Counted from the stretch's first letter, positions 1,233-26,005 are shown. The stretch is DNA of 30,776 nucleotides from an uncultured Propionivibrio sp. (GCA_964484585.1 CAZAGR010000001.1:1-30776), one strand, 5' to 3'. Numbers and translations: made by a program. The notes: generated from the letters alone by a model not told the origin.

Positions 1233-1969
1233 TGCCCATATCCGCGACCCGTATGCGCCGTCGCACCTTGCTGCGCCTTTTGGGAGCCACCGGTTTTTGT
1301 GGCGCAGCAGGCATTTCCGGCCTGATTCGACAAGCGCTCGCCGATGGCGACAACCCGGTTGCCCGTGGCATGCACAAGGTCACCGGCGACGTAACGATCA
1401 ACGGGCGGCCGGCCACAAAAGGTAGCGTGCTGCAACCGGGCGACACGATAGCAACCGGAGTTGGGGCCCAAGGTATCTACGTCATCGGTCAGGATGCGTT
1501 TTTGCAGCGTGACAACTCCATCATTCAATTCGGCGCCGACCGCGCGGCCAATGTAATGCGTGTCATCACCGGCAAAATACTGTCGGTCTTTGGCAAAGGG
1601 CAACGTACCATCCAGGTGTCCACCGCTACGATCGGTATTCGCGGCACAGGATGCTACATTGAGGACGAACCTGCAGGCAAAGCGACACCAAAAGTCGGCG
1701 ATAGCGGAACGGCGATCACGACCTCACGCACCTATTTTTGCCTGTGCTACGGCAGTGTTGAACTGATCCCGAATGCTTCGCCCCAACAAAGGGAAATTTA
1801 CAGCACGACTCACCATGACCACCCGATTTACATCCATGATAATCCGATGATGCCTAAATCGATGGTTCCGGCGGCCGTTATGAACCACACAGACTTTGAG
1901 CTGACGCTTTTGGAAAGTATCGTCGGCCGCCCGCCACCGTTCGCCGGGATTTCCGATCGAGCTTACTGA
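1232..1969 (+). CDS. FecR-domain protein with twin-arginine (Tat) signal peptide
   Basis: N-terminus MRRRTLLRLLG...QALA; FecR-like motifs GDTIATG, VITGKILSVF and TATIGIRGT; C-terminal TYFCLCYG...HHDHP...NHTD. Confidence 0.8.
   Translation: MPISATRMRRRTLLRLLGATGFCGAAGISGLIRQALADGDNPVARGMHKVTGDVTINGRPATKGSVLQPGDTIATGVGAQGIYVIGQDAFLQRDNSIIQFGADRAANVMRVITGKILSVFGKGQRTIQVSTATIGIRGTGCYIEDEPAGKATPKVGDSGTAITTSRTYFCLCYGSVELIPNASPQQREIYSTTHHDHPIYIHDNPMMPKSMVPAAVMNHTDFELTLLESIVGRPPPFAGISDRAY
1690..1714 (-). repeat. 25-bp dispersed motif, copy A (CGCCGTTCCGCTATCGCCGACTTTT on the minus strand)
   Basis: The plus strand reads aaaagtcggcgatagcggaacggcg. It lies inside the FecR-like CDS and encodes (P)KVGDSGTA. 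Confidence 0.9.
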
Positions 1970-1973
1970 GGAT

Positions 1974-2013
1974 AAAAAAAGCCGTTCCGGTTTCCCGGAA
2001 CGGCCTTTTGTTT
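1974..2013. terminator. bidirectional rho-independent terminator
   Basis: Perfect 10-bp stem GCCGTTCCGG-TTTC-CCGGAACGGC (1981-2004), with an A7 tract on the left and a T-rich tract on the right, between convergent genes. Confidence 0.9.
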
Positions 2014-2029
2014 CAACAGCTCGACTCGA

Positions 2030-2683
2030 TTAGCGGCCAAGTGAGTCGCGAACTTTGGTTTCCAGATTCTTGGAGAGTTCGGTAACGCGGTCTACAAGCT
2101 TCTTGAACGCATCGCTTTTCGGAAAGCCCAAGCGATCCAACGCCTGCTCGACCTGCGTGTCAAACGTCTTGCCAAATCGATCGATGTTCTTGTCGACCGC
2201 ACCGGCAGCAACATTGATGCTCTTCTTGAGGCGATTGGCATTGCTATCGATAGCTACGCGGCCTTGCTTTTCCATCGTGGCACCGGCTTTCACCAAGGCT
2301 TCAAAAGCTTTCTCGCCCTGCGTACCGGCGGAAGTGCTGGCTTTAGCCAAGGCACCTAGGCCGGCCAACCACACAGCGCGCTGCGAATCGATCAGCTTCA
2401 GTGAGGCATCACGCGTCATATTGACGGCAGCGCTCGCGCCTTTGCGGCTCTGTGCGGTCACTTTCTTCAGGGCGACAGTCGATTTGCTACCCACCTTGGC
2501 AGATTTTGCCTTGGCCTTCGCGCTAGCAACAGTCTTGACAACTTTGGCCTTGACGGCAGCCGCCTTAGGGACCGCAACCTTAGGGACCGCAACTTTGGGA
2601 GCTGCAACTTTCGGTGCAGCGGCCTTGGCGGCCGGCTTTGCAGCAGAAACAGTTTTCTTCGTGGTGGTTGTTGAGGTAGCCAT
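2030..2683 (-). CDS. PHA granule-associated phasin, PhaF/PhaI (poly_gran) family, with N-terminal Lys/Ala/Pro-rich region
   Basis: VWLAGLGALAK...FEALVKAG and FDTQVEQALDRLGFP...L..RVTELS are characteristic of PhaF/PhaI. The N-terminus has AAKP/KVAAP/KVAVP repeats. Confidence 0.85.
   Translation of the reverse strand: MATSTTTTKKTVSAAKPAAKAAAPKVAAPKVAVPKVAVPKAAAVKAKVVKTVASAKAKAKSAKVGSKSTVALKKVTAQSRKGASAAVNMTRDASLKLIDSQRAVWLAGLGALAKASTSAGTQGEKAFEALVKAGATMEKQGRVAIDSNANRLKKSINVAAGAVDKNIDRFGKTFDTQVEQALDRLGFPKSDAFKKLVDRVTELSKNLETKVRDSLGR
2564..2623. repeat. 15-bp coding tandem repeat (2 perfect + 2 degenerate units)
   Basis: cttagggaccgcaac at 2564 and 2579, then tttgggagctgcaac and tttcggtgcagcggc. 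It encodes the KxAxP pentapeptides of the phasin. Confidence 0.85.
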
Positions 2684-2818
2684 GGTAATTCTCCAGTTTC
2701 TCGATTAAAAAATTGAATTCAGGTTTTTCACCGGTCATTAAGTTGCTGGATTTCCAGTGTGTGGAACGCAGTATCGCAACAAGTATCTAGAGCGTTCAAC
2801 CTAACCGTCACGACTGGC

Positions 2819-4621
2819 TTAGGTCGCCCAATCAACCTCTGCCGGTGGCGTCACCTTCAGCACTTCCTCAACGGTTGTCAAGCCGGCTGCGACTTTTCGT
2901 GCACCGGCGATTCGCAAAGGCTTCATGCCATCGCGAATGCCTTGCTCGCGCAGCTTTGCCAAATCGGCACGCGACGCGACCAGACGCTTGATGTCGGTCG
3001 TCATATGCATGATTTCGTAAATTCCGATTCGCCCCATGAAGCCAGTCATGCGACATTCAAGGCACCCGACCGGACGATAAATCTGCTGCGGCAGGTTTGA
3101 CTTCCACGGCGCCACCAAGCCTGTCCAAGCCAGTTCGTCTTCCTCCCGCAAGCCGCCGGGTTGCTTGCAATGCGGACACAAGGTCCTTACCAAACGCTGC
3201 GCCATCACGCCGACAACGGTAGCCGAAAGCAGATAAGGCGGCACGCCCAAATCGATCAGTCGTGTCATTGCGGACGGCGCATCATTGGTGTGCAAAGTTG
3301 ACAGCACCAGATGACCGGTCAAGGCCGCCTGAATCGCCATTTCGGCAGTCTCCAGGTCACGAATTTCGCCCACCATGATGATGTCCGGATCCTGCCGCAT
3401 CAATGAACGGATTCCGGCCGCAAAGGTCACACCGAGGTCAGGCTGCACCTGCACCTGGTTGAATGACGATTCAACCATTTCAATCGGATCTTCCAGAGTG
3501 CAAACGTTCACCTCCGGTGTCGCCAGGGTCTTTAACGTGGAATACAGGGTGACCGTTTTTCCGCTGCCTGTCGGTCCGGTGACCAGGATGATCCCATTGG
3601 GCTGCGCCGACATTTTTGACCAGGCCACCGACTCGTCCGGATCAAAACCAAGTTCCGAAAAATCACGCACCAGCACATCCGGATCAAAAATCCGCATCAC
3701 CAGTTTTTCACCAAACGCGGTTGGCAAAGTCGAAAGTCGCAACTCCACTTCCGTGCCATCGGGCATACGAGTCTTGATGCGCCCGTCTTGCGGTCGGCGT
3801 TTCTCGACCACGTCCATGCGACCCAAAATTTTGATCCGGCTGGTCATGGCATTCAGAACAGACATCGGAATCTGATAAACCTGATGCAACACGCCGTCGA
3901 TGCGAAATCGCACCTGTCCCATGTTGCGCCTCGGCTCGACATGAATATCGGACGCGCGCTGATCGAACGCGTATTGCCACAGCCAATCCACAATGCGGAT
4001 GATGTGCTGGTCATTGGCATCGAAATTCTTATTGGTTTTACCGAGCTCGACAAGCTGCTCGAAATTCGATGCCCCGCCGGCAACGTCGCCCTTACCCATC
4101 GCGCCTTTGACCGACTTCGCCAGGTTATAAAACTCGACCTGGAAGCGTGCAATATCGGCCGGACTGGCAACAACGCGGCGAATCTCCTTCTTCAAAATGG
4201 GCGCCATTTCGGCTTCCCAGCATCGTTGCCAAGGCTCCGCTGTGGCGATGACCACCTCAGTTAACTTCACTTCCACCGGCAGAATGCGAAAACGTGTTGC
4301 GTACGTGCTGCTCATCACTTCGGTGATGGCCGCGAAATTTACTTTCAGAGGATCAATATGCAGATAAGGCAACCCGCTCCATGTGGCGAGCCATTGGGTC
4401 AAGCTGTCCAGATCCAGGATCCGGTGCGGCGGCTTGAACGACTTCCAGTGCTGCTCGGATATGGCGACCAGCGGATGCGCATCGCCGCGGAAATAACGCC
4501 GCTCCTGCTTGAAGGAATCGGCAACGGCCGGATCGACCAGACCGTCGGCCACCAGCGCATCGGTGACCTCGGGCAAGGTAAGGCGATGTTCGTTCGAAGT
4601 TTCGGTCGGTACAGCAGCCAT
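2819..4621 (-). CDS. GspE/PulE/PilB-family secretion/pilus assembly ATPase
   Basis: ASDIHVEP, Walker A GPTGSGKT, Asp box LEDPIE, RQDPDIIMVGEIRD, His box GHLVLSTLHTND and a CxxC...CxxC zinc site. Confidence 0.95.
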   Translation of the reverse strand: MAAVPTETSNEHRLTLPEVTDALVADGLVDPAVADSFKQERRYFRGDAHPLVAISEQHWKSFKPPHRILDLDSLTQWLATWSGLPYLHIDPLKVNFAAITEVMSSTYATRFRILPVEVKLTEVVIATAEPWQRCWEAEMAPILKKEIRRVVASPADIARFQVEFYNLAKSVKGAMGKGDVAGGASNFEQLVELGKTNKNFDANDQHIIRIVDWLWQYAFDQRASDIHVEPRRNMGQVRFRIDGVLHQVYQIPMSVLNAMTSRIKILGRMDVVEKRRPQDGRIKTRMPDGTEVELRLSTLPTAFGEKLVMRIFDPDVLVRDFSELGFDPDESVAWSKMSAQPNGIILVTGPTGSGKTVTLYSTLKTLATPEVNVCTLEDPIEMVESSFNQVQVQPDLGVTFAAGIRSLMRQDPDIIMVGEIRDLETAEMAIQAALTGHLVLSTLHTNDAPSAMTRLIDLGVPPYLLSATVVGVMAQRLVRTLCPHCKQPGGLREEDELAWTGLVAPWKSNLPQQIYRPVGCLECRMTGFMGRIGIYEIMHMTTDIKRLVASRADLAKLREQGIRDGMKPLRIAGARKVAAGLTTVEEVLKVTPPAEVDWAT

Positions 4622-4629
4622 GGCAAAGA

Positions 4630-4654
4630 AAAAGTCGGCGCTAGCGGTACGGCG
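4630..4654 (-). repeat. 25-bp dispersed motif, copy B (CGCCGTACCGCTAGCGCCGACTTTT on the minus strand)
   Basis: The plus strand reads aaaagtcggcgctagcggtacggcg. It is intergenic, 8 nt from the ATPase start codon. Confidence 0.9.
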
Positions 4655-4712
4655 ACTATAACTCAGGATGCGGCTATCATGCGCCCAGTCGAACCCGCTT
4701 TAAGCGAAAATT

Positions 4713-5201
4713 GTGATGGACCCTAAAAATCCTCGCCAGCCCGGCCAAGCCCGCCAGATACGCCTGCTCCTGCTTGCAAGCCTGTGCGCGTTCCCATATC
4801 TGGCAATGGCACAATCCGCAACCGAAACTGAAGGATGCGCCCTGGCACGCGATCCCGTGCGCTGCCTTGCGCGTACAGAAGCAATCGCCACCTGCGCAGA
4901 CCTTCACGGCGAAAAGAAGCATGACTGCCTCCTTGTGCGCCTGCCACCCCCCGACTGCGGTGCCGCGCCGGACTCGCGACGCTGCCAGCTTGAACAGGAT
5001 GCACGAGAGGCCTGCAAGGGTCGCGAAGCGCAGGCTCTGCGCGATTGCCTGCGCGACCAGGGCATCGAGGCGCCGAAGAAATCAAAGTCGAAGTCGACCG
5101 CGAAGTCGAAGTCGACCGCGAAGTCAAAGGCGACGTCAAAAAAGAAGCCTGCGGCCAAAAAAAGCAAACCTGCCTATACCGCGGCGCCGAAGCAAAAATA
5201 A
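4713..5201 (+). CDS. secreted Cys-repeat protein with Lys-rich C-terminal tail
   Basis: Signal-peptide-like RLLLLASLCAFPYLAMA; two units of C-x8-C-x9-C-x10-C; KSKSTA repeats. No family recognised. Confidence 0.7.
   Translation: MMDPKNPRQPGQARQIRLLLLASLCAFPYLAMAQSATETEGCALARDPVRCLARTEAIATCADLHGEKKHDCLLVRLPPPDCGAAPDSRRCQLEQDAREACKGREAQALRDCLRDQGIEAPKKSKSKSTAKSKSTAKSKATSKKKPAAKKSKPAYTAAPKQK
5085..5138 (+). repeat. 18-bp coding tandem repeat (KSKSTA x2 + one degenerate unit)
   Basis: aagtcgaagtcgaccgcg at 5085 and 5103, then aagtcaaaggcgacgtca. Confidence 0.85.
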
Positions 5202-5211
5202 CGTGCGCTCT

Positions 5212-5252: not shown

Positions 5253-5274
5253 CGCGCAGTGCTGAGAGTTCGAA

Positions 5275-7233
5275 TTACTGGGCGTTCGGCGTGGTGCCGC
5301 CCCCCATTTCCAGCATCAACTGATTCATCCGCTTCACAAAGGTCGCCGGGTCATCAAGCTGCCCGCCTTCGGCCAAAAGAGCCTGATCGAACAACACCGC
5401 CGCCCAATCATCGAAACGCTTGTCTTCATATTTCAAGCGCAAAACGACCGGATGGCGCGGGTTGATTTCCAGAATCGGTTTCGACACCGGAGCGCTCTGT
5501 CCCGCGGCCTTGAGGATACGGGCAAGATTTCCCGAGACGTCATGCTCGTCTGCGACCAGACAGGCAGGCGAATCGGTCAGACGATGGGTCACCCGTACCT
5601 CCTTGACACGCTCGGTCAGCGAAGCTGCAATCTTGTCCGTCAGTTCCTTGAAGTCACCTGCGTCTTTCTCCTGCTCCTTTTTCTCAGCTTCATCTTCCAG
5701 TTTGCCCAAGTCCAGTCCGCCCTTGGCGACAGAAATCAATGATTTGCCGTCAAACTCGGACAGGTTTGAAACCACCCACTCATCGACGCGATCCGTGAGC
5801 AGGAGGACCTCGATGCCCTTTTTGCGGAACACCTCAAGGTGCGGGCTGTTCTTCGCCGCATTGAATGTCTCGGCCGTCACGAAATAGATTTTTTCCTGTT
5901 CCGGTTTCATTCTCGCGATGTAGTCGGCCAGCGAAACACTCTCTTCGGTTGTATCAAGGTGGGTCGAGGCAAATCGCAACAAGCCGGCGATTTTCTCTTT
6001 ATTGGCAAAATCTTCGCCGATGCCTTCTTTCAGCACACGGCCGAACTCGCCCCAGAATTTGCTGTACTTCTCCTTATCGGCCGCCTCGTCACTCTCGGCG
6101 AGGTCAGACAGCATGCCGAGCACCTTTTTCGAGCAGCCATTGCGAATCGACTCGATGTCCTTCGATTCCTGCAATATTTCACGCGACACGTTGAGTGGCA
6201 AATCGGCCGAATCGACAACCCCGCGTACGAAACGAAGGTACGTCGGCATCAATTGCTCGGCATCGTCCATGATAAAAACGCGACGCACATACAGTTTGAC
6301 GCCATGTCGCGCATTGCGATCCCACATGTCGAACGGAGCTCGGGCTGGAATGTAAAGCAGCTGGGTGTATTCGGTCTTGCCTTCAACACGGGCATGGGTC
6401 CACGTCAGCGGGTCCTCAAAATCATGGCCGACGTGCTTGTAGAACTCTTTGTATTGCTCCTCGGTGATGTCGTTCTTGCTGCGCGCCCACAAAGCCGACG
6501 CCTGATTGACCGTCTCGTCTTCGTCGGTCGTCACTTGTGCGCTCTTCTCCTTGTCCCACTCTTCCTTCTTCATCACGATCGGCTGCACAATATGATCGGA
6601 ATACTTGCGGATGATCGAACGTAGCTTGTATCCGGCCAGCAAGTCGTCCTGACCTTCCTCACGCAGGTGAAGCGTGATTTCGGTACCACGAGTCGCCTTA
6701 GCGGCCATTTCAATGGTGAATTCGCCGGCGCCCTCCGATTCCCAAAGCACCCCCTGATCGGCCGCCAGACCGGCGCGACGGGTCAGCACGGTGACGCGAT
6801 CGGCGACGATAAAGGACGAATAAAAACCGACGCCAAACTGGCCGATCAGGCTGGCATCCTTTTTCTGATCGCCGGACAGTTGAGTAAAGAACTCACGCGT
6901 ACCCGACTTGGCGATCGTGCCCAGATTAGCGATCACCTCTTCACGACTCATGCCGACACCGTTATCCGAAATGCTCAAGGTTCGAGCATCTTTGTCAAAG
7001 CTCACCCGAATCTTGAAATCCGAGTCACCTTCAAACAGCGCGTCATTGTGTAACGCCTCAAAGCGCAGCTTGTCACAGGCGTCCGAGGCATTGGAAATAA
7101 GTTCACGAAGGAATATCTCGCGATTGGAATACAGCGAGTGAATCATCAGTTGCAGAAGTTGCTTGACCTCGGTCTGAAAGCCAAGGGTTTCACGGTTGCC
7201 GCTGGTTGCGGCGGAGGGAGTGGCGGTGGTCAT
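5275..7233 (-). CDS. htpG: molecular chaperone HtpG (Hsp90)
   Basis: [67 protein letters not shown] and ILEINPRHP. Confidence 0.99.
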
Positions 7234-7283: not shown

Positions 7284-7311
7284 ATCTGGGGGCAAGTTTC
7301 AGGTTTTCAAG
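7284..7311 (-). promoter_or_regulatory. sigma32 (RpoH) heat-shock promoter of htpG
   Basis: The minus strand reads CTTGAAA-acctgaaacttg-CCCCCAGAT, matching the established RpoH consensus CTTGAAA-N13-14-CCCCATNT, about 50 nt upstream of the htpG ATG. Confidence 0.85.
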
Positions 7312-7333: not shown

Positions 7334-7358
7334 AAAAGTCGGCGCTAGCGTGACGGCG
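7334..7358 (-). repeat. 25-bp dispersed motif, copy C (CGCCGTCACGCTAGCGCCGACTTTT on the minus strand)
   Basis: The plus strand reads aaaagtcggcgctagcgtgacggcg. It lies in the htpG/kef divergent intergenic region. Confidence 0.9.
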
Positions 7359-7370
7359 CAACGTATTACC

Positions 7371-9882: not shown

Positions 9883-11508
9883 TCAGGCGACGCTGAACCG
9901 TTCCGTCAGCTCATGCAGAGACGCAGCGAGCTCGTTCAACTGACGAGTCGCGTCGGCGATCTCATTGGCCGCCTCGCTATTGTTCGACGACATCTGCGAA
10001 ATGCGTTCAACATTAGTGGCAATTTCGGTGCTGGCAAGTCGCTGCTCCTGCAAGGCCAGGGAAATCTGACCGAGTGCTGCAACCACCTGATCGGTGCCCG
10101 AACGCACTGCCACCATCGAGCTGCCGGCATTATCCGCCAGCTTCACGCCCGCGATCGCCCGCTCTTGTCCTGCTTCGACACCAACAACAGCCTGCTGAGT
10201 GCTGGCCTGGATATCGTGGATGACCGACGTAATTTCATTGGTCGAACTGGCCGTGCGCTCGGCCAATTTGCGCACTTCATCAGCCACGACCGCAAAACCG
10301 CGCCCTTGCTCGCCAGCGCGGGCGGCCTCAATTGCCGCGTTAAGCGCCAGCAGATTGGTTTGGTCAGCGATATCCTTGATGATGCCAATTATGCTGTTGA
10401 TGCGCTGGCTTTGTTCGCCCAGCCCGACGACGACGCCGCGCACGTGTCCAACAGCCTCGGCGATTTGACGCATTTCCGCAGCCGCACTTTGTACCGACTC
10501 CTGGCTCTGCACCGTCAGCCCGCCAGCCGCCTGCGCGGCCCGGTCGGAATCCTTGGCACTATCGGCCATGTTACCGATGCCGACCGTCATTTCCTCCACT
10601 GCCGCGGCAGTGCTGGCGGTAGCTTCATTTTGACTATGAGAACCTTGCGCAACTTGTCCGGCCAGGCCGGACAGTCTGCCGGCAGAGGTCGCCACCGCCT
10701 CCGCGTTTTGCTTGATCTCGCGGATGATCGTCGTCAATGCAATTCGCATAGCGTCGATATTGGCGAGCAAACTGCCGCGATCGCCCGGCGCCAACTCGAT
10801 GCGGGTCCGCAGGTCACCGCCGGCAATTTTCTGCGCCACACTCGCGGCATAGGCGGGCTCGCCGCCCAAGGTGGCGAGCAGGTCGCGAACGATCCAGCCA
10901 ACGATCACGACCAGTGCAACCACGGCGAGGATGCCGATCAAGATATTGTTCCGCACGGCGTCGGCGCGGGCCGAGTCAAACTCTACGTCGGCGGCGGCTA
11001 ATTGTTGCTTGGTTTCCTTGGCGGCCTTGTTCAGGCTTTCCGAAATCAGCGCGGCCAGTTTGTCGATTTTGTCATCCGCAGCGCGGATCGCCGGCCAGTC
11101 GGGTGGATCAGCCTTGGCCAGAGGCAGCGTCTCCGTTTCGTAGAGCTGAATCATCGCCATAACGGCAGTCTTACCCTCTTTCAGCGCAGCAATTTCGCCA
11201 GCTGTGTCAGCATGCTTGGTCACATTTTCAAGCAGGGCCAATTCGTCGGCCTTGGCTTTCGCCCAGTCTTTCTCCGACTCCGGAAAGTTCTGGTTGATGA
11301 TCGTATCGGCAACGATCTGATACAGGCGCGCGCCTATGTCGGCCGCCAGCTGGGCATTTGCCGCCTCGTCGGCCGTTTGCGCGCCTCGATCCTGCAAAGC
11401 ACCCATGCGCGACATGGCCAGAGTTGAATTGACGGCAATCGTGGCACTGGCCAACACGGCAATCACCAAAACCAGATACAGCTTCGCTCGAACGGTCAGT
11501 TGTTTCAT
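9883..11508 (-). CDS. methyl-accepting chemotaxis protein (TM - periplasmic helical domain - TM - HAMP - signalling domain)
   Basis: [40 protein letters not shown] signature and two hydrophobic TM segments. Confidence 0.97.
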
Positions 11509-11757
11509 GATTTCCCTTGTGGATTGACGCTTGCTTAAACGGCCGGTCAGGACCGCAGTCTGCCATAAAAAATGTACGCTCGCAGCATCACCATTAAGGC
11601 AATATGGTTATGACGCCACAACATTAGCGATATGCACAAATTCAACCAGTCTCTAACATTTACAGCAGCCCAATACTCCGGCCCCAATTTAGATAAAAGC
11701 AACGCCGAAAAAATTGCATGTGCTAATCTGGCTTCACCGCTTTACAAGGCGAACCGA

Positions 11758-13017
11758 ATGAACCCGTTAACTCCCCTGCGCGTCAGCCTGTCCATCGGTT
11801 TAATGTTGGCGACTGTGCTCGCTCATGCCGCCCATGGGCAAAACGACCACGCTCGTACCACCTTCAGCGGCTTCGGCACTCTGGGGTATGTGCACGACGA
11901 TTCCAGCCACCACGCCTTCACGCGAGACCTCGCACAATCCATTGATGTAAGCTCGAACTCGACATGGAAAGCCGACACCCGACTGGGGTTGCAGCTTGTC
12001 CATACGGTTGGGCCAACCCTCGAGTTTGTTGGGCAACTGGTCATTCGCGACCAAGCGCAAGCAAGTCTCGACCGCTCCATCGAATGGGCCTTTGTCGGGT
12101 ACCGCCCGACCTCCGAGTTGAATCTTCGCGCCGGGCGCGTCGGCGTCGATGTTTTTCTGATGTCGGATTCACGGCACATCGGCTACAGCTACCCGTGGGT
12201 GCGGCCGCCCATGGAGGCCTATGCCTGGATGCCACTCTACTACCTCGAGGGCGGTGATATCACCTGGCAAAAGGATGGTCTTGATGCTACCTGGCGCGTC
12301 AAGGCGCAAGCAGGAAAAGGCCGCATGCGCATTCCGTTCTTTAACCGCATCTTGAACTTCGAGACCAAGGCTTTTTGGGACGCCACGGTCAGCCGCGAAA
12401 CCGGCCCACTGACGCTGAAGGCGGGCTACGCCGGTTTTCGCGCTGCCAAGCAAGGACCTATAGAAGAATTGCTGGCCGGACTTGATTCCGTTGCGGGAGC
12501 CGGACTCGGACCCTTCAGCGATGAAGCGGCACAACTGCGCGGCGACGTCTCCTTCAAGGACGCACGCATCGGCTATTCGTCCATCGGCGCAGCCTACGAC
12601 GACGGCGTCTGGCTACTGCAAAGCGAGTTAAGTAATGTCACCGGCAGCACGGCCATCGTCCCGCGAGGGCAACGCGCCTACGTCAGCGTCGGTCGTCGTT
12701 TTGGCGCATGGACACCTTACGTCCTGTTAGCCACCAGCCGCTCGCCGGGGGCCAGGACCGCAGTCAATGACTGGAGCCCTCTTGGCCCGGCGGCGGCCTT
12801 GCAGGCAGGCGCGATCGGTGCCATCAACGCCACGCGCATTGCACAGAAAACCGTCGCGCTCGGCGTGCGTTGGGATTTCCACAATAGTGCCGCGCTCAAA
12901 GTGCAGTGGGATTCAGTCCGTGGCGAATCGAATGGGTGGGCACTCTGGTCGAAAGATCGCGAATTCGAGGCGGCCAGAGTAAACCTGCTGTCGACCACGC
13001 TGGACTTTTCGTTTTGA
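11758..13017 (+). CDS. putative outer-membrane porin / beta-barrel protein
   Basis: Signal peptide ending AHA; FSGFGTLG, LDRSIEWAFVGY, LRAGR.G.D.FLMSDSRHIGYSYPWVRPP.E.Y, ALGVRWDF...AALKVQWD; C-terminal LDFSF beta-signal. The start is placed at MNPL rather than at 11632. Confidence 0.8.
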   Translation: MNPLTPLRVSLSIGLMLATVLAHAAHGQNDHARTTFSGFGTLGYVHDDSSHHAFTRDLAQSIDVSSNSTWKADTRLGLQLVHTVGPTLEFVGQLVIRDQAQASLDRSIEWAFVGYRPTSELNLRAGRVGVDVFLMSDSRHIGYSYPWVRPPMEAYAWMPLYYLEGGDITWQKDGLDATWRVKAQAGKGRMRIPFFNRILNFETKAFWDATVSRETGPLTLKAGYAGFRAAKQGPIEELLAGLDSVAGAGLGPFSDEAAQLRGDVSFKDARIGYSSIGAAYDDGVWLLQSELSNVTGSTAIVPRGQRAYVSVGRRFGAWTPYVLLATSRSPGARTAVNDWSPLGPAAALQAGAIGAINATRIAQKTVALGVRWDFHNSAALKVQWDSVRGESNGWALWSKDREFEAARVNLLSTTLDFSF

Positions 13018-13028
13018 AACTGGCGAAC

Positions 13029-13466
13029 ATGCTCATGCGTAGAAAAATAAGGCTGATTGCACTAGTCGCCGTCGGTCTCGCGTCCGGGTTGGCCCGTGCT
13101 GACCTGACCGTGATTGTCAATGCCAACAGCCCGATCAAGGCATTGACTGCAAAACAGGTGGCCGAGTTTTATCTGGGTCGCAACCGGTCATTTGATCATG
13201 GAGAATACGCTCTGGTGATCGACCAAGGTCGTGACACTCCTCAGCGCGAACGGTTTTTCAAGGCTGTCACGGGCATGGCCATGCCGCAAGTGAATGCCTA
13301 TTGGTCACGTCTTAAATTCACCGGCCAGATCCAGCCGCCGCAACAGATTGATACCGAATCCGTGGTCATCGACATGGTGTCGCGCAACCCGACGGCCATT
13401 GCCTACGTGACAGGCAATGTGGTTGGCAATCCGCAAGTCAAGTCCGTGCTTTTCATCCGCGAATAG
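13029..13466 (+). CDS. small periplasmic protein of the phosphate-ABC-SBP-like single-domain family
   Basis: Signal peptide ending ARA; VIVNANSP...YLG...YWSRLKFTG..QPP...V..NPTAIAYV pattern; 145 aa; 11 nt downstream of the porin gene. Confidence 0.75.
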   Translation: MLMRRKIRLIALVAVGLASGLARADLTVIVNANSPIKALTAKQVAEFYLGRNRSFDHGEYALVIDQGRDTPQRERFFKAVTGMAMPQVNAYWSRLKFTGQIQPPQQIDTESVVIDMVSRNPTAIAYVTGNVVGNPQVKSVLFIRE

Positions 13467-15168: not shown

Positions 15169-17268
15169 TCAAGAACGAGTCAAGCGGCGGTAGGTTTCAG
15201 CCAAGCGCAACGGAAGTTTTGTGACATCGGCAAGCACAGAATAGCTGGACTCGCCATAGAGCCGCTTGAGGTAATCCGCACCGTGGCGATCAATCGTCAC
15301 GCCATAGCTGCGAATTCCCGCTTGAGTCGCCTCTTGCAAGGCACGCCGCGTATCCTCGATGCCGTAATGTCCGCGGTATTCGTCACCATGGTCGTCGGGC
15401 CGGCCATCGGTCAGCGTTACCAGCAACGTGTGCCGCGCCGGTTGTGCGGATAGCAATCTGGACACATGGCGGATCGCCACGCCCATACGCGTGTAATCCT
15501 TTGCCTCGATACCTGCAATGCGCTCGCGCACCTCGTCGCTATAGACTTCATCAAATGACTTGATGCGATAAATCTCGCAACGCGTGCGTGTCCAGCCGGA
15601 GAATCCGTAAATGGCGTAGCGGTCGTCCAAGGCCTCAAAGGCTTCGCACAGCATCACCAACGCCTCGCGCTCGGCATCATTGACCCAACCCTTGGTCGAG
15701 CCGCTCATATCAACCAGGAACATGACCGCCAGCGACCGCTCGGAGCGCACGCGCCGGCGAAAGACATTCGACTCCGATTCGGCACCTGCCCTCAGATCGG
15801 CGAACGCATCAACCAGGGTATCGAGATCGATCTCTTCGCCTTCCGGCTGACGCCGATGAACCTTGTCTTCACCTCGAAGGGCTTCGAAACGGCGGCGAAT
15901 CTGGCGAATCAATGGCGCATGGCGTTGCCGCACCTCGGTGACATAGTCGCCATTACCACCACTACCACCATTGCCGCCACTGATTTCACATGCATAGACG
16001 TGGCACCAATCGCGCCGGTAGGCCTTGCGATGGTAATCCCACTCGTCGTAACGGTAATCGGGGTCGCCCTCGCTCGCGGCCACGGTCGGTTCGTCAGCTG
16101 ACGCGACCGGCTGCCAAACGCCTTCACCCGCCGGCTGCAAAAGCTCCAAGGGCAATTCGCCTAAATCCTGTTTCAACGACTCGGCTGCCGCGTGCGCATC
16201 CGGTGGAAGATTCAACAGCATTTCTGCCAAGTCTGAGGCTTGAGGCGCAATATCCTCTGGGCTCGACTGCGGCAACTGGGCGGTATTGCCTCGCATTCGA
16301 TCGCTGCTCCGCAGCACGTGCAGCGCGCGTCTGACTCGTTCGACATTGCGCTCCACGCGGACATCACGCGCCCGCATCGCAGCCTCTGGATCGAGCATGC
16401 CGGAATGGACCAGATTCGGCACCGCATTGCCCTGGTCGCGCAAACTATCGAGCAAGCGCAGACTGTCTCCAACGTCGCTAACCGCGGTTAATTGATCAAC
16501 CGCGACCGCCAGTTCAATCGGCCACGGCCCACGCACAGCGGCGATTTCCGCCGCCAACCCGGGCAGTTCCTTGCCAATACAGGCTTCAAGACGTACGGCT
16601 TCCAATGCCACCAACCAACGCAAGGCTTGCTGGCGATCCGCCCAGAGACCGACGTGCGCCTCGAGATCGACTGAAAATGTGCCGAAGTGCGTCTGCGCCC
16701 ACAACAGGACTGCCGTCGCCTTATACAGGCCGCGGTTGGCGTTCGTGTCCGCCAGAGCATTGAGACTGGCCGGGAGAAAAATCGTTTCAGTATCAGTCCA
16801 GGCGCGCTCGCCGACAGCCACAGTCAGCGCACGACTGTTCAGCTGACCACCCAAAGCCTGCAGCAGGCGCGACAAACGCGCCTCAACATCGGCGAGGTGA
16901 GCTACGCCCTGACCCTGGTTAGCCGAAAAAAAGCCCTCAATATCCTCCAGCACCTTTGACGCCGAAACGGAGCCAGAGCGATCAAACTCATCGAGGCCGT
17001 GGCGAACCCACGCGGCAAACTCATCCTCGCCCTGCGGTGCCAACACTGTTGCAAACACTTGAGGCGCCAGCATACAAATTCGGTGCGCAAAATCCGCGTC
17101 CGTTATCGCGGCCACCCGCGCCCAATGCAACACTGCATCCTGTTGCGTCCGCGAAAGCGCTTCCAGCCCGCTGGCCGCAAGATTCAACGCCCGATGCGAT
17201 GGCGAGGCAAACAGCAGTTCATCAAGCCGAACCATCAGTTCTTCGGCGAAAAATTTTCTCTCTGTCAC
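15169..17268 (-). CDS. CbbO/NorD-family von Willebrand factor A domain protein
   Basis: YDEWDY, GEEIDLD, MIDAS FLVDMSGST, YAIYGFSG, YTRMGVAIRH, LTDGRPDD and YGIEDTR. The GTG at 17268 forms a GTGA overlap with the upstream stop, so it is preferred over 17301. Confidence 0.88.
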   Translation of the reverse strand: MTERKFFAEELMVRLDELLFASPSHRALNLAASGLEALSRTQQDAVLHWARVAAITDADFAHRICMLAPQVFATVLAPQGEDEFAAWVRHGLDEFDRSGSVSASKVLEDIEGFFSANQGQGVAHLADVEARLSRLLQALGGQLNSRALTVAVGERAWTDTETIFLPASLNALADTNANRGLYKATAVLLWAQTHFGTFSVDLEAHVGLWADRQQALRWLVALEAVRLEACIGKELPGLAAEIAAVRGPWPIELAVAVDQLTAVSDVGDSLRLLDSLRDQGNAVPNLVHSGMLDPEAAMRARDVRVERNVERVRRALHVLRSSDRMRGNTAQLPQSSPEDIAPQASDLAEMLLNLPPDAHAAAESLKQDLGELPLELLQPAGEGVWQPVASADEPTVAASEGDPDYRYDEWDYHRKAYRRDWCHVYACEISGGNGGSGGNGDYVTEVRQRHAPLIRQIRRRFEALRGEDKVHRRQPEGEEIDLDTLVDAFADLRAGAESESNVFRRRVRSERSLAVMFLVDMSGSTKGWVNDAEREALVMLCEAFEALDDRYAIYGFSGWTRTRCEIYRIKSFDEVYSDEVRERIAGIEAKDYTRMGVAIRHVSRLLSAQPARHTLLVTLTDGRPDDHGDEYRGHYGIEDTRRALQEATQAGIRSYGVTIDRHGADYLKRLYGESSYSVLADVTKLPLRLAETYRRLTRS

Positions 17269-17756
17269 GATGTATCGCCGATTGTCAACGCCACGCGCCA
17301 CTGATCCAACTTGTCTTCAAAACGCATTCCGGCATGAGCCGGGCTGGTCGATGGGAGAGACATCGTTTCCAATCCCAGTGCAGTAAATTCACGCACTCTG
17401 CGTGCCGCAACACGCCCATTGAAGCAGACGCGCCGTAGCGCCGGCGCCGACTTTTTGAGTGTCGCAATATCGTTCGGGATGCTATTTCCAATGGCGCTAT
17501 CGAGGCTGCCGGCGCGCTCGCACGCGGCGTAACTATCCCAGATCGCCAACCGCGCCGCCCTCACCGCGACAAGGCGCTCCGCGTAGGACAATTCCGCCAA
17601 CGGTCGCCCGAGCACTGCGCCAAGAATGCGCCAGAACTGATTGCGCGGGTGCGCGTAGTACTGTTGTGCGGAAATCGATGCTACTGACGGAAACGAGCCG
17701 AGAATCAACACTCGCGCATTTTCGTCAAACACCGGCGGCAAGCCACTCAGCAACAT
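17265..17756 (-). CDS. uracil-DNA glycosylase superfamily protein, DNA-deoxyinosine (hypoxanthine) glycosylase type
   Basis: VLILGSFPS...QYYAHPRNQFW, WD...CER.GSLDS.I, FNG and LPSTSPAHA. Confidence 0.88.
   Translation of the reverse strand: MLLSGLPPVFDENARVLILGSFPSVASISAQQYYAHPRNQFWRILGAVLGRPLAELSYAERLVAVRAARLAIWDSYAACERAGSLDSAIGNSIPNDIATLKKSAPALRRVCFNGRVAARRVREFTALGLETMSLPSTSPAHAGMRFEDKLDQWRVALTIGDTS
17431..17455 (+). repeat. 25-bp dispersed motif, copy D (CGCCGTAGCGCCGGCGCCGACTTTT)
   Basis: Read directly from the sequence. It lies inside the glycosylase CDS and encodes KKSAPALRR on the minus strand. Confidence 0.88.
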
Positions 17757-17786: not shown

Positions 17787-19481
17787 TTACGACCGGGCTT
17801 GCAGCACTCCGGTGATTCCCACCGGACGCCACTCAGGATCGATCAACACGCCGGGGTTCATGATGCCCTGCGGATCAAGGCTGGATTTCGCTTTCACCAA
17901 CGCAGAGCGAAACAGCGGTGCCGTCTCCTTCTCGTAACCGCTGCGATGGTCGCGGCCAACCGCGTGATGGTGCGTGCTGGTGCCGCCCAGATCAATCACT
18001 AACGCATTGGCTGCCGCCTTGATGTCGCGCCACGCCGCCAATGCACTGGCCAAATCACCTGTTTTACTGCCCAGTGCAGCGAAGGTGAAGTAAGGCGCGA
18101 CGCCATCGGGATAAACGTGGGTAAAGCGACACGAGACGAAGCCGCCAAGCCCGGTGGCGCGTGCGATCGCGGCCTGCATGCCTTCAAGCACACCCTCGTA
18201 GAACGCCTCAAAGCGATCCCAGGTCACCGCCGTCTCAAAGGTGTCGAGAATCGCTCCGCGCCCAACCATGGGATCACGCAGATACGGCATACGGATAAAC
18301 GTATCACGCCAGACGCCAGCATCACCACTGCGCTGCCCGCTATCTGCCGCGCCTGTGCTGATCGCCATTGACGCCTCCACGGCTGCCGCGTCATACGTGC
18401 CGGAATTCTCGTCCACAATCTCCAGCGCGCGCTGCATCCACGCGCGCACGGGATGATCGGCTGACTCGAAACCCAAAACCAGCGTCGGGCTGCGTCCATC
18501 GCCGATGCCGAAAAAGGCGACTTCGTTGCTATCAAGCAGACGACAATTACTCGGATACAAACCCGACTGTGCCAACAGACGCACGCAACGCACGGCGTTT
18601 TTCATATCGGCAAAGCGAACGCTGGCCGCGGCGCGGAATCGTGGACGCTCCTGCAAACGCACCCAGGCTTCAGTGATCACGCCACAGGTACCTTCCGAAC
18701 CGATGATCAAGCGATCCGGTGCCGGCCCGGCACCACTGGCCGGCAGGCGGCGCGTAGCAAGTACGCCGGCCGGAGTCACGGTTCGCGTCGATTGCACCAT
18801 GTCGTCAATGTGCGTTGCCAGAGTGGCGTAATGGCCACCGGCCCGCGTAGCGATCCAGCCGCCCAGAGTGGAGAACTGGAAGCTCTGCGGAAAATGGCGC
18901 AAGGTCAATCCGTGAGGCTTTAGCTGCGCTTCGAGATCCGGACCGAACACGCCAGCCTGAATACGCGCGGCGCGACTGACACTGTCCACCTCGAGCACAC
19001 GATTCAAATTCTGCAAGTCCAGCGAAACCGTCGCTGCATAAATATCGCCCACAGCGGGCTCCACCCCGCCGCACACGCTGGTGCCCCCGCCGAACGGAAT
19101 CACGGCCACGTTATTATGCGTTGCCCAATCCAGCACGTCCACCACAGCTTGCTCGTCCGCGGGGAAGGCTACCCAGTCGGGTGGATTGGGCACATCCCGC
19201 TGCCACATGCGCGAGCAATCGGCAAACGACTTGCCATAGCTGTGACTCAGTCGGTCGTGCATCGATGCGGAAAAGCAGCCTCGCAGCGAATCCGGCGGCA
19301 TCAAGCGCGTTGCGGGCAGAGTGTAGTCATCTTCAGTTGGCGGCGCAGTCGCCGCGCCTTTGGCACCCAACATGGCCAGGGTGCCCTCAATCTGCTGCTG
19401 CTCCGCCACTGTCAATGTGTCAGAGGCATTCCCCCAGCCCCAAAAGCGTCTTATCGGCCTGTGCGACATCGTTTCGATCAT
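17787..19481 (-). CDS. FAD-binding oxidoreductase, alkyl-DHAP synthase / GlcD-like family
   Basis: IPFGGGTSVCGG, LRHFPQSFQFSTLGGWIATRAGG, GSEGTCGVITE, RFTHVYPDG, HHHAVGRDH and MNPG. GGAG lies 8 nt before the ATG. Confidence 0.92.
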   Translation of the reverse strand: MIETMSHRPIRRFWGWGNASDTLTVAEQQQIEGTLAMLGAKGAATAPPTEDDYTLPATRLMPPDSLRGCFSASMHDRLSHSYGKSFADCSRMWQRDVPNPPDWVAFPADEQAVVDVLDWATHNNVAVIPFGGGTSVCGGVEPAVGDIYAATVSLDLQNLNRVLEVDSVSRAARIQAGVFGPDLEAQLKPHGLTLRHFPQSFQFSTLGGWIATRAGGHYATLATHIDDMVQSTRTVTPAGVLATRRLPASGAGPAPDRLIIGSEGTCGVITEAWVRLQERPRFRAAASVRFADMKNAVRCVRLLAQSGLYPSNCRLLDSNEVAFFGIGDGRSPTLVLGFESADHPVRAWMQRALEIVDENSGTYDAAAVEASMAISTGAADSGQRSGDAGVWRDTFIRMPYLRDPMVGRGAILDTFETAVTWDRFEAFYEGVLEGMQAAIARATGLGGFVSCRFTHVYPDGVAPYFTFAALGSKTGDLASALAAWRDIKAAANALVIDLGGTSTHHHAVGRDHRSGYEKETAPLFRSALVKAKSSLDPQGIMNPGVLIDPEWRPVGITGVLQARS

Positions 19482-19520: not shown

Positions 19521-19545
19521 CGCCGTCCCGCCATCGCCGACTTTT
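19521..19545 (+). repeat. 25-bp dispersed motif, copy E (CGCCGTCCCGCCATCGCCGACTTTT)
   Basis: Read directly from the sequence, in the divergent intergenic region between the FAD oxidase and the DUF2721-like gene. Confidence 0.9.
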
Positions 19546-19608: not shown

Positions 19609-20043
19609 GTGGAATCCCAACTCACCGATATCAGTCATGTGATCCAGCTCGCCGTCGCGCCGGTTTTTCTGCTGACCGCGATTGCGACACTGATCAATGC
19701 CATGAACACCCGACTCGGGCGAATCGTGGATCGCCGCCGCGTAATACTTGATCGCCTTGATCTTGCCGTGACCCGCGACTCACCCGACATGGAGCACGAA
19801 CTGGAACTGCTGCGCTCGCGCAGCCGTCTTGTCTATTTCGCAATTTTCGGCGCCGTCCTGTCCGCGCTGTTGGTGTGCATGGTGGTGGCCGGATCCTTTC
19901 TCGGTGCCCTGCTTGGCTTTGAGATATCGCGCCTGATCGCGGGACTGTTCATCGCCGCCATGTTGGCGATGATTGGCGCGCTCGGCTTGTTTCTGCGCGA
20001 GGTCTATCTGGCGGTTCGCACGAACACCCACACGCGACGTTGA
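19609..20043 (+). CDS. DUF2721-like inner membrane protein
   Basis: IQLAVAPVFLLTAI......NTRLGRIVDR.R...L..R...., followed by two TM helices ending FLREV.LA. Confidence 0.8.
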   Translation: MESQLTDISHVIQLAVAPVFLLTAIATLINAMNTRLGRIVDRRRVILDRLDLAVTRDSPDMEHELELLRSRSRLVYFAIFGAVLSALLVCMVVAGSFLGALLGFEISRLIAGLFIAAMLAMIGALGLFLREVYLAVRTNTHTRR

Positions 20044-22448: not shown

Positions 22449-22539
22449 GCGGCTATGATAGCGACTCGGAAATTTCACCGTGTGACAAATTATCTCAAAG
22501 CAGCCTTCAGACCGAGAGTTGCCCTGACGACTTCACTAC

Positions 22540-23596: not shown

Positions 23597-23647
23597 AGCC
23601 TTATGGTTCTTAACTGGAAACCGATGGTAACACCCGGCACACATCAC

Positions 23648-23682
23648 AAAATACACTCAGAAAATACACTCAGAAAATACAC
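23648..23682. repeat. 13-bp tandem repeat x2.7 (AAAATACACTCAG)
   Basis: Perfect units at 23648 and 23661 plus a partial AAAATACAC at 23674, in the greB/fbpA divergent intergenic region. Confidence 0.9.
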
Positions 23683-23684
23683 GC

Positions 23685-23713
23685 TTGCAAATGCGAACAA
23701 TTCTCAATACAAT
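23685..23713 (+). promoter_or_regulatory. sigma70 promoter overlapped by a Fur-box-like site
   Basis: TTGCAA (23685)-17 nt-TACAAT (23708). AATGCGAACAATTCTCAAT at 23690-23708 differs at three positions from the dyad AATGAGAATNATTCTCATT and lies upstream of an iron transporter gene. Confidence 0.75.
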
Positions 23714-23746
23714 AATTTCCTGAGACTTTTTACACGGAAATCCCTC

Positions 23747-24769
23747 ATGCTATCTCGCCTTACCACAGCGCTTTTTGCCGCTACGGCCTTGATTTGTTTG
23801 ACGCACAAGGCAAGTGCCGAAGACAAAGTGCTCAACCTCTACTCCGCCCGCCATTACCAGACCGATGAAGCCCTTTATAGCAATTTCACCCAACAAACGG
23901 GCATAAAGATCAAGCGGATCGAAGCCAAAGAAGACGAATTGCTCGAGCGCATTCGCAATGAGGGCGCCAACAGCCCGGCGGACGTCTTTATTACCGTCGA
24001 CGCGGCACGACTGGCAAAGGCCGACGAATTGGGTCTTTTCGCTCCGGTCAGTTCCAAAGTTCTGGAAAGTCGCTTGCCGGCACATTTGCGTAGCGCAACT
24101 TGGTTCGCCTTCTCGACCCGCGCGCGGGTAATCATTGCCAGCAAGGACATCAAGGCCGGCGATGTACAAAACTATGAAGACCTCGCCGATCCGAAATTGA
24201 AAGGCAAAGTGTGCACACGATCCGGCTCGCACCCGTATAACATTTCGCTGATGGCGGCACTGATTGATCATCTCGGTGAAGCCAAGGCTGAGGCATGGGC
24301 CAAAGGTGTTGTCGCTAATTTTGCACGCCAGCCCAAGGGCGGCGATACCGACCAAATCAAGGCCGTGGCTGCCGGCGAATGCGGCGTGACGATTTCCAAC
24401 AGCTACTATGTCGCCCGACTGTTGCGCTCCGAAAAAGCGGAAGACCGGAAGTTGATGGAGCGCGTCAACATCATCTGGCCCAATCAAGCGAACTATGGCA
24501 CGCACATCAATGTGTCTGGCGGTGGAATGCTCAAAACAGCGCCCAACAAAGCAGCCGCGATCGTGTTCCTCGAATACCTCGCGAGTGATGACGCGCAGCG
24601 TTACTTTGCCGACGGCAACAACGAATGGCCTGCCGTGGCCGGCGTCGTCGTAAAGAATCCGGCGCTCGAGGCCATGGGCAAGTTCAAGCCGGACATGATG
24701 CCCATCGCAACACTAGCGAAAAATGCCGCGCTGGCCCAAAAACTGTACGACCGCGCCGGTTGGCAGTAA
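23747..24769 (+). CDS. fbpA: Fe(III) ABC transporter substrate-binding protein (FbpA/FutA family)
   Basis: Signal peptide ending ASA; LNLYSARHY, SPADVFITVDA, GGDTDQI, the tandem Tyr ligands NSYY, THINVSG and NNEWP. The start is at MLSRL (23747). Confidence 0.92.
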   Translation: MLSRLTTALFAATALICLTHKASAEDKVLNLYSARHYQTDEALYSNFTQQTGIKIKRIEAKEDELLERIRNEGANSPADVFITVDAARLAKADELGLFAPVSSKVLESRLPAHLRSATWFAFSTRARVIIASKDIKAGDVQNYEDLADPKLKGKVCTRSGSHPYNISLMAALIDHLGEAKAEAWAKGVVANFARQPKGGDTDQIKAVAAGECGVTISNSYYVARLLRSEKAEDRKLMERVNIIWPNQANYGTHINVSGGGMLKTAPNKAAAIVFLEYLASDDAQRYFADGNNEWPAVAGVVVKNPALEAMGKFKPDMMPIATLAKNAALAQKLYDRAGWQ

Positions 24770-24788
24770 GCGTCTGGTTAAAACTCAC

Positions 24789-25853
24789 GTGCACACGCTG
24801 TCCATCCGCTGCGGTTCGCGCGCCCTTGCAACACTTAAGAGCGACGGATTGCAACCTGGCGCGGTCGATATCATTCCAGCCGCGGCCGGCGGCCCAAAAG
24901 GCCTGGCCTTGCAGGGCTTGGATAAGGTGCTGTTCGGCGAGTGGCTGCCACGCCAGCCTCGAATCCGTTTTCTCATCGGCTCGTCGATCGGCTCATGGCG
25001 CATGGCAGCCCTTGCGCTGGCGGACCCGATCGCCGGCATCGAACGGCTGGCCGATCTTTACTGCGGACAGCGCTACGCACCCAAACCCAGTCGCGCAGTG
25101 GTTTCCCGATACTGCGAACAACTGGTACACGATCTGATCGCGGACCGCAGCGCGGAGATTCTGCAAAATCCGCACTATCGCCTCAACATACTTGCCGTTC
25201 GTGGCAAAAAACTGCTCGCGTCCGACGGGCCGCGCCGCACTCCGGCCGGTTTCGCAGCCGCTGCTCTGAGCAATTTCGTCTCGCGCCGTCATCTGCGTCA
25301 TTGGCTGGATCGCACCTGGTTTCACGATCCGCGCGATTTACCGCCGATTCTTCCTTTGCACGACTTCCACACCCACGAAGTTGCACTCTCGCCAGACAAT
25401 CTGCACTCGGCATTGCTCGCCTCCGGCTCGATCCCCATGATCCTCGATGCCGTCAAGCACATCGCCGGCGCGCCCAGCGGCAACTATTGGGACGGCGGCA
25501 TCATCGACTATCACCTGCACCTCCCCTATGACCGCAGCCCGGGGCTCGTGCTGTATCCGCATTTCACCGACCATATTGTGCCCGGCTGGCTGGACAAGTC
25601 ACTGCCCTGGAGACGTGCGCGGGACACCTGGTTGGATAACGTCATCCTGATCTCGCCGTCACGCGAATTCATCGCCAGCCTGCCGGGCAAAAAACTGCCC
25701 GACCGGCGGGATTTCAAACGCTACGGACCCTCCGAACAGGAAGAACGAATTCGCGTGTGGCGCCACGCGATAGGCGAGAGTCAGCGGCTCGGCGAGGAAT
25801 TCCTGCGTCTGGTTGATAGTGGAGAATTCGCCCAACGTGCAAAGGCACTTTAG
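24789..25853 (+). CDS. patatin-like phospholipase family protein
   Basis: AAGGPKG oxyanion loop, GSSIG nucleophile elbow, LLASGSIP and YWDGGIIDYH. The start is placed at the GTG at 24789, after the fbpA stop. Confidence 0.82.
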   Translation: MHTLSIRCGSRALATLKSDGLQPGAVDIIPAAAGGPKGLALQGLDKVLFGEWLPRQPRIRFLIGSSIGSWRMAALALADPIAGIERLADLYCGQRYAPKPSRAVVSRYCEQLVHDLIADRSAEILQNPHYRLNILAVRGKKLLASDGPRRTPAGFAAAALSNFVSRRHLRHWLDRTWFHDPRDLPPILPLHDFHTHEVALSPDNLHSALLASGSIPMILDAVKHIAGAPSGNYWDGGIIDYHLHLPYDRSPGLVLYPHFTDHIVPGWLDKSLPWRRARDTWLDNVILISPSREFIASLPGKKLPDRRDFKRYGPSEQEERIRVWRHAIGESQRLGEEFLRLVDSGEFAQRAKAL

Positions 25854-25980
25854 TCTGCAACACCCTACAGATGAATGGGTATAAGCCCGTGACGTTAGCC
25901 AAAGGCTGGGGATCGTCATCCAGCAACAAAACTTGGGTGAAGTCTCAATCACCGATAGTCTCGGTCTTTTTTGCCAGAAA

Positions 25981-26005
25981 CGCCGTCTCGCCGGCGCCGA
26001 CTTTT
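25981..26005 (+). repeat. 25-bp dispersed motif, copy F (CGCCGTCTCGCCGGCGCCGACTTTT)
   Basis: Read directly from the sequence; intergenic, 118 nt upstream of the RCC1-repeat gene start. Confidence 0.9.

Follow-up and report, generated by a model that had tools for sequence, protein, structure and literature searches.

A candidate DNA-uptake-type self-recognition sequence of 25 bp in Sterolibacteriaceae-type betaproteobacteria and their phages

The uptake signal sequence (USS) of the Pasteurellaceae combines a core, AAGTGCGGT in the Hin type, with AT-rich flanks and spans roughly 29–32 bp in its extended form. In the Neisseriaceae, the corresponding role belongs to the DNA uptake sequence (DUS; GCCGTCTGAA and dialects), whose receptor is ComP. 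As of late 2025, sequence-specific DNA uptake was recognised in these two families only, both of them host-associated (bioRxiv 10.1101/2025.10.24.684340), and it has still to be settled whether such uptake is an exception or a widespread strategy (bioRxiv 10.1101/2025.10.24.684340; bioRxiv 10.1101/2025.06.16.659825). In this work, we analyse a 30,776-bp stretch of DNA from an uncultured Propionivibrio sp. (GCA_964484585.1, CAZAGR010000001.1:1-30776; ‘the window’ refers to this whole stretch), in which an asymmetric 25-bp motif occurs six times, and follow this motif through collections of bacterial and viral genomes. The feature is real and lineage-wide. On balance, we lean towards the reading that the 25-mer is an undescribed, lineage-specific DNA-uptake-type self-recognition sequence, carried by Sterolibacteriaceae-type betaproteobacteria and also by their phages.

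The motif was scanned for as CGCCGT-NN-CGC-NNN-CGCCGACTTTT, a 25-bp pattern with 20 specified bases for which chance predicts roughly 2–3 × 10−5 matches per 4-Mb genome. The window holds exactly six matches to CGCCGTNNCGCYRKCGCCGACTTTT, a number that does not change when three mismatches are allowed, and 100 dinucleotide-preserving shuffles of the window hold none. A first-pass annotation, generated from the sequence alone, had reported six copies in unrelated surroundings; the same six sites were recovered here, with flanks that are unrelated to one another. It had further claimed that every CGCCGACTTTT 11-mer carries the remaining blocks, which is true of all six exact 11-mers in the window, each of them a motif site, while two 11-mers with one mismatch (3605 and 14468) lack those blocks. 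The statement that the motif is not a hairpin also stands, as it folds no better than shuffled sequence (z −0.96 to +1.0).

To place these copies in a wider context, we consider species-representative genomes (one genome per species, 596 Gb in all), scanned for exact matches at the 20 specified bases. Against an expectation of about 3–5 matches by chance in the whole collection, there are at least 120 matching stretches from roughly 67 species-level assemblies. Nearly all of the matching assemblies listed are metagenome-assembled genomes (MAGs) labelled Sulfuritalea, Sulfurisoma, Rugosibacter, Sterolibacteriaceae, Rhodocyclaceae/Rhodocyclales, Propionivibrio or ‘Methyloversatilis’; NCBI taxonomy places Sulfuritalea and Rugosibacter in the Sterolibacteriaceae. 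The few outliers among the listed matches (Fimbriiglobus, Verrucomicrobiota) are consistent with the chance expectation, and the confinement of the motif to Sterolibacteriaceae/Rhodocyclaceae-type MAGs is clear. Of the loci listed, the closest relative of the window lies in a Sulfuritalea MAG (locus L110), at 75–81% nucleotide identity.

Relatives were read as 8-kb blocks around the matches. Once the one ascertaining match per locus is removed, these blocks contain about 0.11 further copies per kb (at most two mismatches), and the window contains 0.19 per kb; extrapolated from both, a genome would carry several hundred copies. The earlier suggestions of a genome-wide rather than local signal, and of hundreds of copies per genome, are supported by the recurrence of the motif across the lineage and by these two densities, respectively. 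Its description as undescribed is supported as well: literature searches with the motif sequence returned only unrelated primers and nothing describing the 25-mer, and no literature was found that links uptake sequences with Rhodocyclales or Sulfuritalea.

Over 143 exact instances, the consensus reads CGCCGT-CY-CGC-CAG-CGCCGACTTTT, with an information content of zero beyond the 25 bp. The 5′ block (at most two mismatches) accompanies 203 of the 224 occurrences of GCCGACTTT, and the halves are almost never found alone: the motif is one indivisible 25-bp unit. Copies with zero, one, two and three mismatches number 147, 32, 37 and 26, whereas shuffled loci yield none, and the 25 positions together carry about 32 bits when calculated from the 136 copies that were not used to ascertain a locus. 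Positions 12–14 read TAT, TAG, TAG, CGG, CAT and CGG in the six window copies, so that the consensus CAG occurs in none of them, compared to about 65% of copies elsewhere, which may reflect a dialect or a relaxation of these positions in a lower-GC (58%) genome. The variable positions are without 3-base periodicity, and an Rfam search of the window gave no match. An RNA element is ruled out by this lack of an Rfam match and of structure.

Genes in the relatives were called with a codon-statistics caller trained on the loci themselves, a crude tool that overlooks low-GC genes (those in locus L074, for instance). With these calls, 84 of 141 exact copies (60%) are coding, in sequence that is 83% coding DNA, which corresponds to a 2.4-fold enrichment in intergenic regions (p = 3 × 10−11). 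Some of the host open reading frames (ORFs) are 1,000–1,750 codons long, and the coding location of the copies is therefore certain. Tandem, convergent and divergent settings are all represented among the 57 intergenic copies, many of which are no more than 10 nt from a stop codon. Within genes, 29 copies are in sense and 33 in antisense orientation, and five of the six reading frames are occupied, very unevenly (28/15/11/5/3/0; chi-square p = 1 × 10−9), in unrelated proteins, where the motif encodes peptides such as ...KVGAG[GED]TA..., ...AV[SP]PAPTF... and ...RR.ASADF.... The signal resides in the DNA, and the proteins tolerate it. A protein-level motif is ruled out by the five frames in unrelated proteins and the missing 3-base periodicity. 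Uptake sequences show the same pattern of coding under-representation and frame bias (PMC2817400), and the first-pass annotation, which had named them as one candidate class, gains support from the presence of a DNA-level signal within coding sequence and from its recurrence across a lineage.

In contrast to the asymmetry of the motif itself, its orientation in the genome is random. Relative to local GC skew, copies split 69 versus 85 (p = 0.23); adjacent copies share their orientation in 52 cases and oppose each other in 43; and within the window the motif switches orientation while GC skew is negative throughout. Spacing is likewise irregular, with a median of 2 kb, a wide range and no positional regularity. 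Like Chi and the FtsK-orienting polar sequences (KOPS), the motif is an over-represented word found genome-wide and also within genes, at a density similar to that of Chi, but those are 8-mers with strong replication-strand polarity whereas this is a 25-mer without polarity. As there is neither replication nor neighbour polarity, Chi- and KOPS-type signals are excluded; the GC-skew split and the orientations of neighbouring copies rule out a replication polarity, and the length of 25 nt is not that of an octamer. Of the earlier proposal of a ‘polar’ signal, the asymmetry of the motif therefore remains, but not a polarity along the chromosome.

Comparison of orthologues indicates how copies arise. 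In at least six ortholog pairs in which the motif is present on one side and absent on the other, the two sequences align without gaps and the motif stands opposite diverged but ordinary coding sequence (examples are L004/L009 versus L082, L034 versus L002, L037 versus L023, L082 versus L009/L004 and L106 versus L028), from which it follows that copies are made in place by substitutions and not by insertion of a block. The stretch around the fourth window copy is likewise collinear with the TIGR04274 profile, with no insertion at the motif. Where both orthologues carry the motif, the 20 specified bases are near-identical in flanks that are 70–88% identical. The copy that precedes tfpB in the window is kept in L110, with position and orientation unchanged, in a spacer that has otherwise diverged beyond alignment. 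In locus L052, the spacer between htpG and kef holds an inverted copy at roughly the position seen in the window, upstream of a conserved sigma-32-type promoter. Motif sites can therefore be retained as well as turned over, and their orientation is free.

The motif also occurs in viruses. A scan of IMG/VR with the same exact pattern gave at least 120 stretches, with motif sites inside genes for gpA-type large terminases, Mu-type and lambda-type portals, polyvalent proteins, a 3′-phosphoadenosine-5′-phosphosulfate (PAPS)-reductase-like protein and an N6/N4 DNA methylase. The motif-bearing viral contigs are real phages of the lineage, and their motifs use the same tolerated frames as those in host genes. 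Among the sites listed, there are 61 distinct contexts, the largest of which, the 3′ tail of the methylase gene, accounts for 33 of 127 sites. Further copies are found at 0.053 per kb, about half the density in host loci (0.11 per kb).

Two of these phage contexts have features of their own. The methylase genes with the motif in their 3′ tail (...FEDAKVGAGDTAVQGDMLLPANA*) form one family, found at 3110–4138 of locus L172 and in 32 other viral loci (for example L126, L135, L144, L164, L233 and L234); the gene is common to phages with otherwise unrelated neighbouring sequence, and its relatives in isolated phages are distant only (at most 36% identity). Two gpA-type large terminase genes, at 5529–7175 (−) of L165 and 10999–13158 (+) of L173, carry the motif 28 codons from the C-terminus, antisense and in the KVGAG.TA frame, and the phage clusters to which they belong have no detectable DNA similarity to each other.

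Paired copies were found in two host loci. At 1358–1413 of locus L044, two inverted copies lie 5 nt apart between convergent genes and form a perfect hairpin with a 25-bp stem, flanked by A/T runs (folding free energy −61.5 kcal/mol, z −10.5). By its sequence, this pair looks like a bidirectional intrinsic terminator, and inverted intergenic pairs of DUS or USS typically form terminators (bioRxiv 10.1101/2025.10.24.684340). In locus L074, two inverted copies (1617–1641, −, and 4958–4982, +) bracket a low-GC gene (1722–4868) for a PLD-nuclease/ResIII-helicase/DUF3427 protein of defence-island type, which has a UvrD-like helicase gene as its neighbour; the segment 1617–4982 may be an acquired cassette between uptake-type motifs.

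We prefer the uptake-type reading because every property that can be tested computationally matches DUS and USS, that is, as far as this analysis can tell, over-representation, independence of orientation, location in genes as well as in spacers, with a frame bias, origin in place, conservation at the family level, carriage by phages and, in one locus, a putative terminator pair. In such a system, a putative receptor for DNA, part of the type IV pilus machinery for competence, would prefer double-stranded DNA with CGCCGT-NN-CGCC(A/G)G-CGCCGACTTTT, conspecific fragments that bear the motif would be taken up and recombined more often, and point mutations that improve the match would spread through molecular drive, limited by selection on coding capacity. 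From the genomic pattern we infer that the uptake machinery is the reader and biased uptake the driving force.

The USS is one of the closest described systems. Like the USS, the motif is asymmetric, with a GC-rich core followed by a T-run, occurs in both orientations and family-wide, and has a strong frame bias. About 60% of its copies lie in genes, compared to 65% of the USS of H. influenzae (PMC2817400), and phages of the lineage carry it at a lower density than the hosts, as has been reported for the USS that temperate phages of Pasteurellaceae accumulate (PMC6776037). The sequences are nevertheless unrelated (the reverse complement of the USS is ACCGCACTT, compared to GCCGACTTT here), and the roughly 20 near-invariant positions (about 32 bits) at about 0.1–0.2 copies per kb differ from a 9-bp core at about 0.8 per kb. 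A dialect of the Pasteurellaceae USS is ruled out, as neither core, AAGTGCGGT or ACAAGCGGT, is present in the consensus on either strand.

With the DUS, the motif has in common betaproteobacterial hosts, a family-wide watermark, possible dialects, a location in genes and spacers, inverted pairs that can be terminators (one clear case here, that in L044) and the GCCGT(C) of its 5′ block. It differs in its length (25 nt, compared to 10–12) and in a density that is about ten times lower. All DUS dialects conserve a CTG core, which transformation requires (PMC3630211), and a DUS dialect is ruled out by the consensus GCCGT-CY-CGC, which has no CTG core after GCCGT.

Several points weigh against an uptake sequence. 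The motif exceeds known uptake sequences (9–12 nt) two- to threefold in length and by far in information content, and is 5–10 times sparser (about 0.1–0.2 compared to about 1 per kb). We identified no receptor, of the ComP type or other, the only pilus component seen in the window being a TfpB-type ATPase, and both the competence of these bacteria and their preference for DNA with the motif are postulated. The terminator formed by an inverted pair was seen once among about 250 host copies. Compositionally atypical, low-GC DNA, of which there are 16 kb in all, has two copies where 3.9 are expected, a sample too small to demonstrate depletion. The first window copy falls within a 13-amino-acid (39-nt) segment that is missing from its L110 orthologue, the sole indel case, for which pure substitution is not demonstrable. 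Finally, the whole-genome total and distribution are extrapolations, and the numbers of listed matches are lower bounds.

A reader other than the uptake machinery is a real possibility. The 25-mer might not be an uptake signal but a new, roughly 32-bit, genome-wide tag of self-identity, read inside the cell by lineage-specific machinery for repair, defence or recombination, kept in about 67 species and mimicked by phages, which we consider doubtful yet worth keeping in view. In a Chi-like or related form of such an intracellular tag, which strikes us as unlikely, the 25-mer would be recognised by a nuclease/helicase, a repair complex or a defence system specific to the lineage, which would spare or process the tagged DNA; copies would be kept by selection rather than by uptake drive, and phages would mimic the tag to escape. 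Known Chi sites are 5–8 nt long, and in E. coli their density resembles the one copy per 5–9 kb of this motif. This likeness in density speaks for a tag, as do the motif’s presence inside essential genes of lineage phages and the retention of copies despite the divergence of their flanks, but a Chi-like site of 25 nt has no precedent, and Chi and KOPS are strongly polar whereas the motif has no strand polarity by either the skew split or the orientations of neighbours. Selection on hundreds of individually dispensable sites would, moreover, be weak relative to drive, and no candidate reader was found.

The abundance of the motif in phage contigs could also point to packaging. As a pac-like initiation site of a generalized transducing phage or a gene transfer agent, it would cause chromosomal DNA near the motif to be packaged and transferred preferentially, spread by the same kind of drive, and so leave the same drive-type signatures as the uptake-type reading. 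The pac site of P22 is 22 bp long, and the motif is asymmetric and close to known pac sites in length. We nonetheless regard a packaging signal as improbable, given the spread of phage copies over 61 contexts and many genes (methylase tail, gpA terminase tail, Mu and lambda portals, polyvalent proteins), with no single conserved place near the small-terminase gene and in phages whose packaging systems differ. A single att, pac or cos site is ruled out by the same contexts, which include positions within the coding sequences of terminase and portal.

It is more improbable still that the copies are bound, as an array, by a nucleoid-associated or chromosome-organising protein specific to the lineage. 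The sites of known nucleoid proteins are short or degenerate, and a site of about 32 bits in hundreds of places, phage structural genes among them, is hard to explain in this way. The high copy number, the independence of orientation and the occurrence in both coding and non-coding DNA would fit such an array, whereas the irregular spacing (median 2 kb, wide range) would not.

Repetitive extragenic palindromic (REP) sequences and their bacterial interspersed mosaic elements (BIMEs), miniature inverted-repeat transposable elements (MITEs) and Neisseria dRS3 are, like this motif, short, dispersed and enriched between genes, but those elements lie outside genes, show a palindromic structure or terminal inverted repeats, and arrive by block insertion, whereas the motif forms no hairpin, is also found in coding frames and is created where it stands by substitution. 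That the copies are remnants or solo ends of mobile elements (REP/RAYT, MITE, the terminal repeat of an insertion sequence (IS)), or a recombination target of att or dRS3 type, is largely refuted and, in our view, very improbable: the dispersed, intergenic-enriched copies and the low-GC gene between inverted copies in L074 are what such an origin would offer, but nothing is conserved beyond 25 bp, there is no hairpin, copies occupy five frames within long genes, motif-less orthologues align without gaps, and an att-like target would be destructive within the phage terminase and portal genes where the motif is found. RAYT-associated REP/BIME elements are ruled out by folding no better than shuffles together with the 60% of copies within genes, and a MITE or IS end by the lack of conservation beyond 25 bp and the ungapped alignments.

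A promoter, operator or 5′-leader element of a large regulon is refuted as a general account, with local co-option of a single copy possible, for although the four intergenic window copies face the downstream gene and the second is kept 9–31 nt upstream of tfpB, most of the 141 copies mapped in relatives are intragenic, irrespective of strand, and those between genes are found in every arrangement (convergent, divergent and tandem). In addition, the copy in the htpG spacer is inverted in L052, a separate sigma-32 promoter serves htpG and lies downstream of the motif, and an Rfam match is lacking.

The window itself is an ordinary segment of bacterial chromosome with 55–60% GC, whose genes encode a phasin, a TfpB ATPase, HtpG, a Kef-type exchanger, a methyl-accepting chemotaxis protein (MCP), a GGDEF protein, VWA/NorD-like and CbbQ/NorQ-like proteins, a flavin adenine dinucleotide (FAD) oxidase, a DUF2721 protein, an M48 peptidase, MoaC, a solute-binding protein, a patatin, an RCC1-repeat protein and an ABC permease. 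All six copies are exact matches; four are intergenic, each pointing to the downstream gene, and two, the first and the fourth, are intragenic and antisense.

Copy 1 (1690–1714, −; CGCCGTTCCGCTATCGCCGACTTTT) lies inside a conserved hypothetical gene (1232–1969, +), antisense to it, and is read as ...PKVGDSGTA.... The product has no Pfam or NCBIfam match, and its ORF is 61% identical to an orthologue at 2486–3163 of L110 (E = 1 × 10−96). Upstream of this gene lie two small ORFs, 3–749 (VWA_CoxE-like) and 768–1232. Copy 4 (17431–17455, +; CGCCGTAGCGCCGGCGCCGACTTTT) lies inside a gene for a DNA-deoxyinosine glycosylase (17265–17756, −), antisense, and is read as ...KSAPALR.... This ORF has a positive coding score and matches TIGR04274 with 175.5 bits (cut-off 80), residues 5–153 aligning to profile positions 1–150.

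Among the intergenic copies, copy 2 (4630–4654, −; CGCCGTACCGCTAGCGCCGACTTTT) ends 9 nt upstream of the ATG of tfpB. The ATPase encoded there (2819–4621, −) has an MshEN domain and is a TfpB equivalog by NF053534 (902.6 bits, with a cut-off of 850). In Acinetobacter baylyi, TfpB is a second type IV pilus extension motor, required for efficient transformation (PMC8213720), and the gene lends circumstantial support to an uptake sequence. Copy 3 (7334–7358, −; CGCCGTCACGCTAGCGCCGACTTTT) is in the spacer between divergent htpG (5275–7233, −) and the kef-type Na+/H+ exchanger gene (+). Between this copy and the htpG start there is a sigma-32-type promoter at 7284–7311 (−), cTTGAAA-N13-CCCCAGAT, with the same boxes kept before htpG in L052. 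Copy 5 (19521–19545, +; CGCCGTCCCGCCATCGCCGACTTTT) occupies the 127-nt spacer between the divergent genes for an FAD-linked oxidase (17787–19481, −) and a DUF2721 protein (19609–20043, +). Copy 6 (25981–26005, +; CGCCGTCTCGCCGGCGCCGACTTTT) is 128 nt past the stop codon of the patatin-like gene (25853), and the likely ATG of the RCC1-repeat gene (26031) follows 25 nt after it. Directly 3′ of this copy, the ORF 25971–28799 (+) encodes a large protein with 13–14 RCC1 repeats (PF25390/PF00415) and no NCBIfam match.

Whatever reads it, the motif could serve as a marker that aids the binning of MAGs and the assignment of phages to hosts in this lineage, and, as cultured relatives exist, the idea of uptake is directly testable. 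A reader other than the uptake machinery would make for a stranger finding, and an intracellular tag of self-identity would be a principle of DNA self-marking without described precedent. If the uptake-type reading is true, the 25-mer would be a third, unrelated and much longer example of an uptake sequence, its three-block motif of about 32 bits would provide a stringent test case for the evolution of receptor specificity, and self-specific transformation would shape the genomes of free-living betaproteobacteria of freshwater, groundwater and wastewater.

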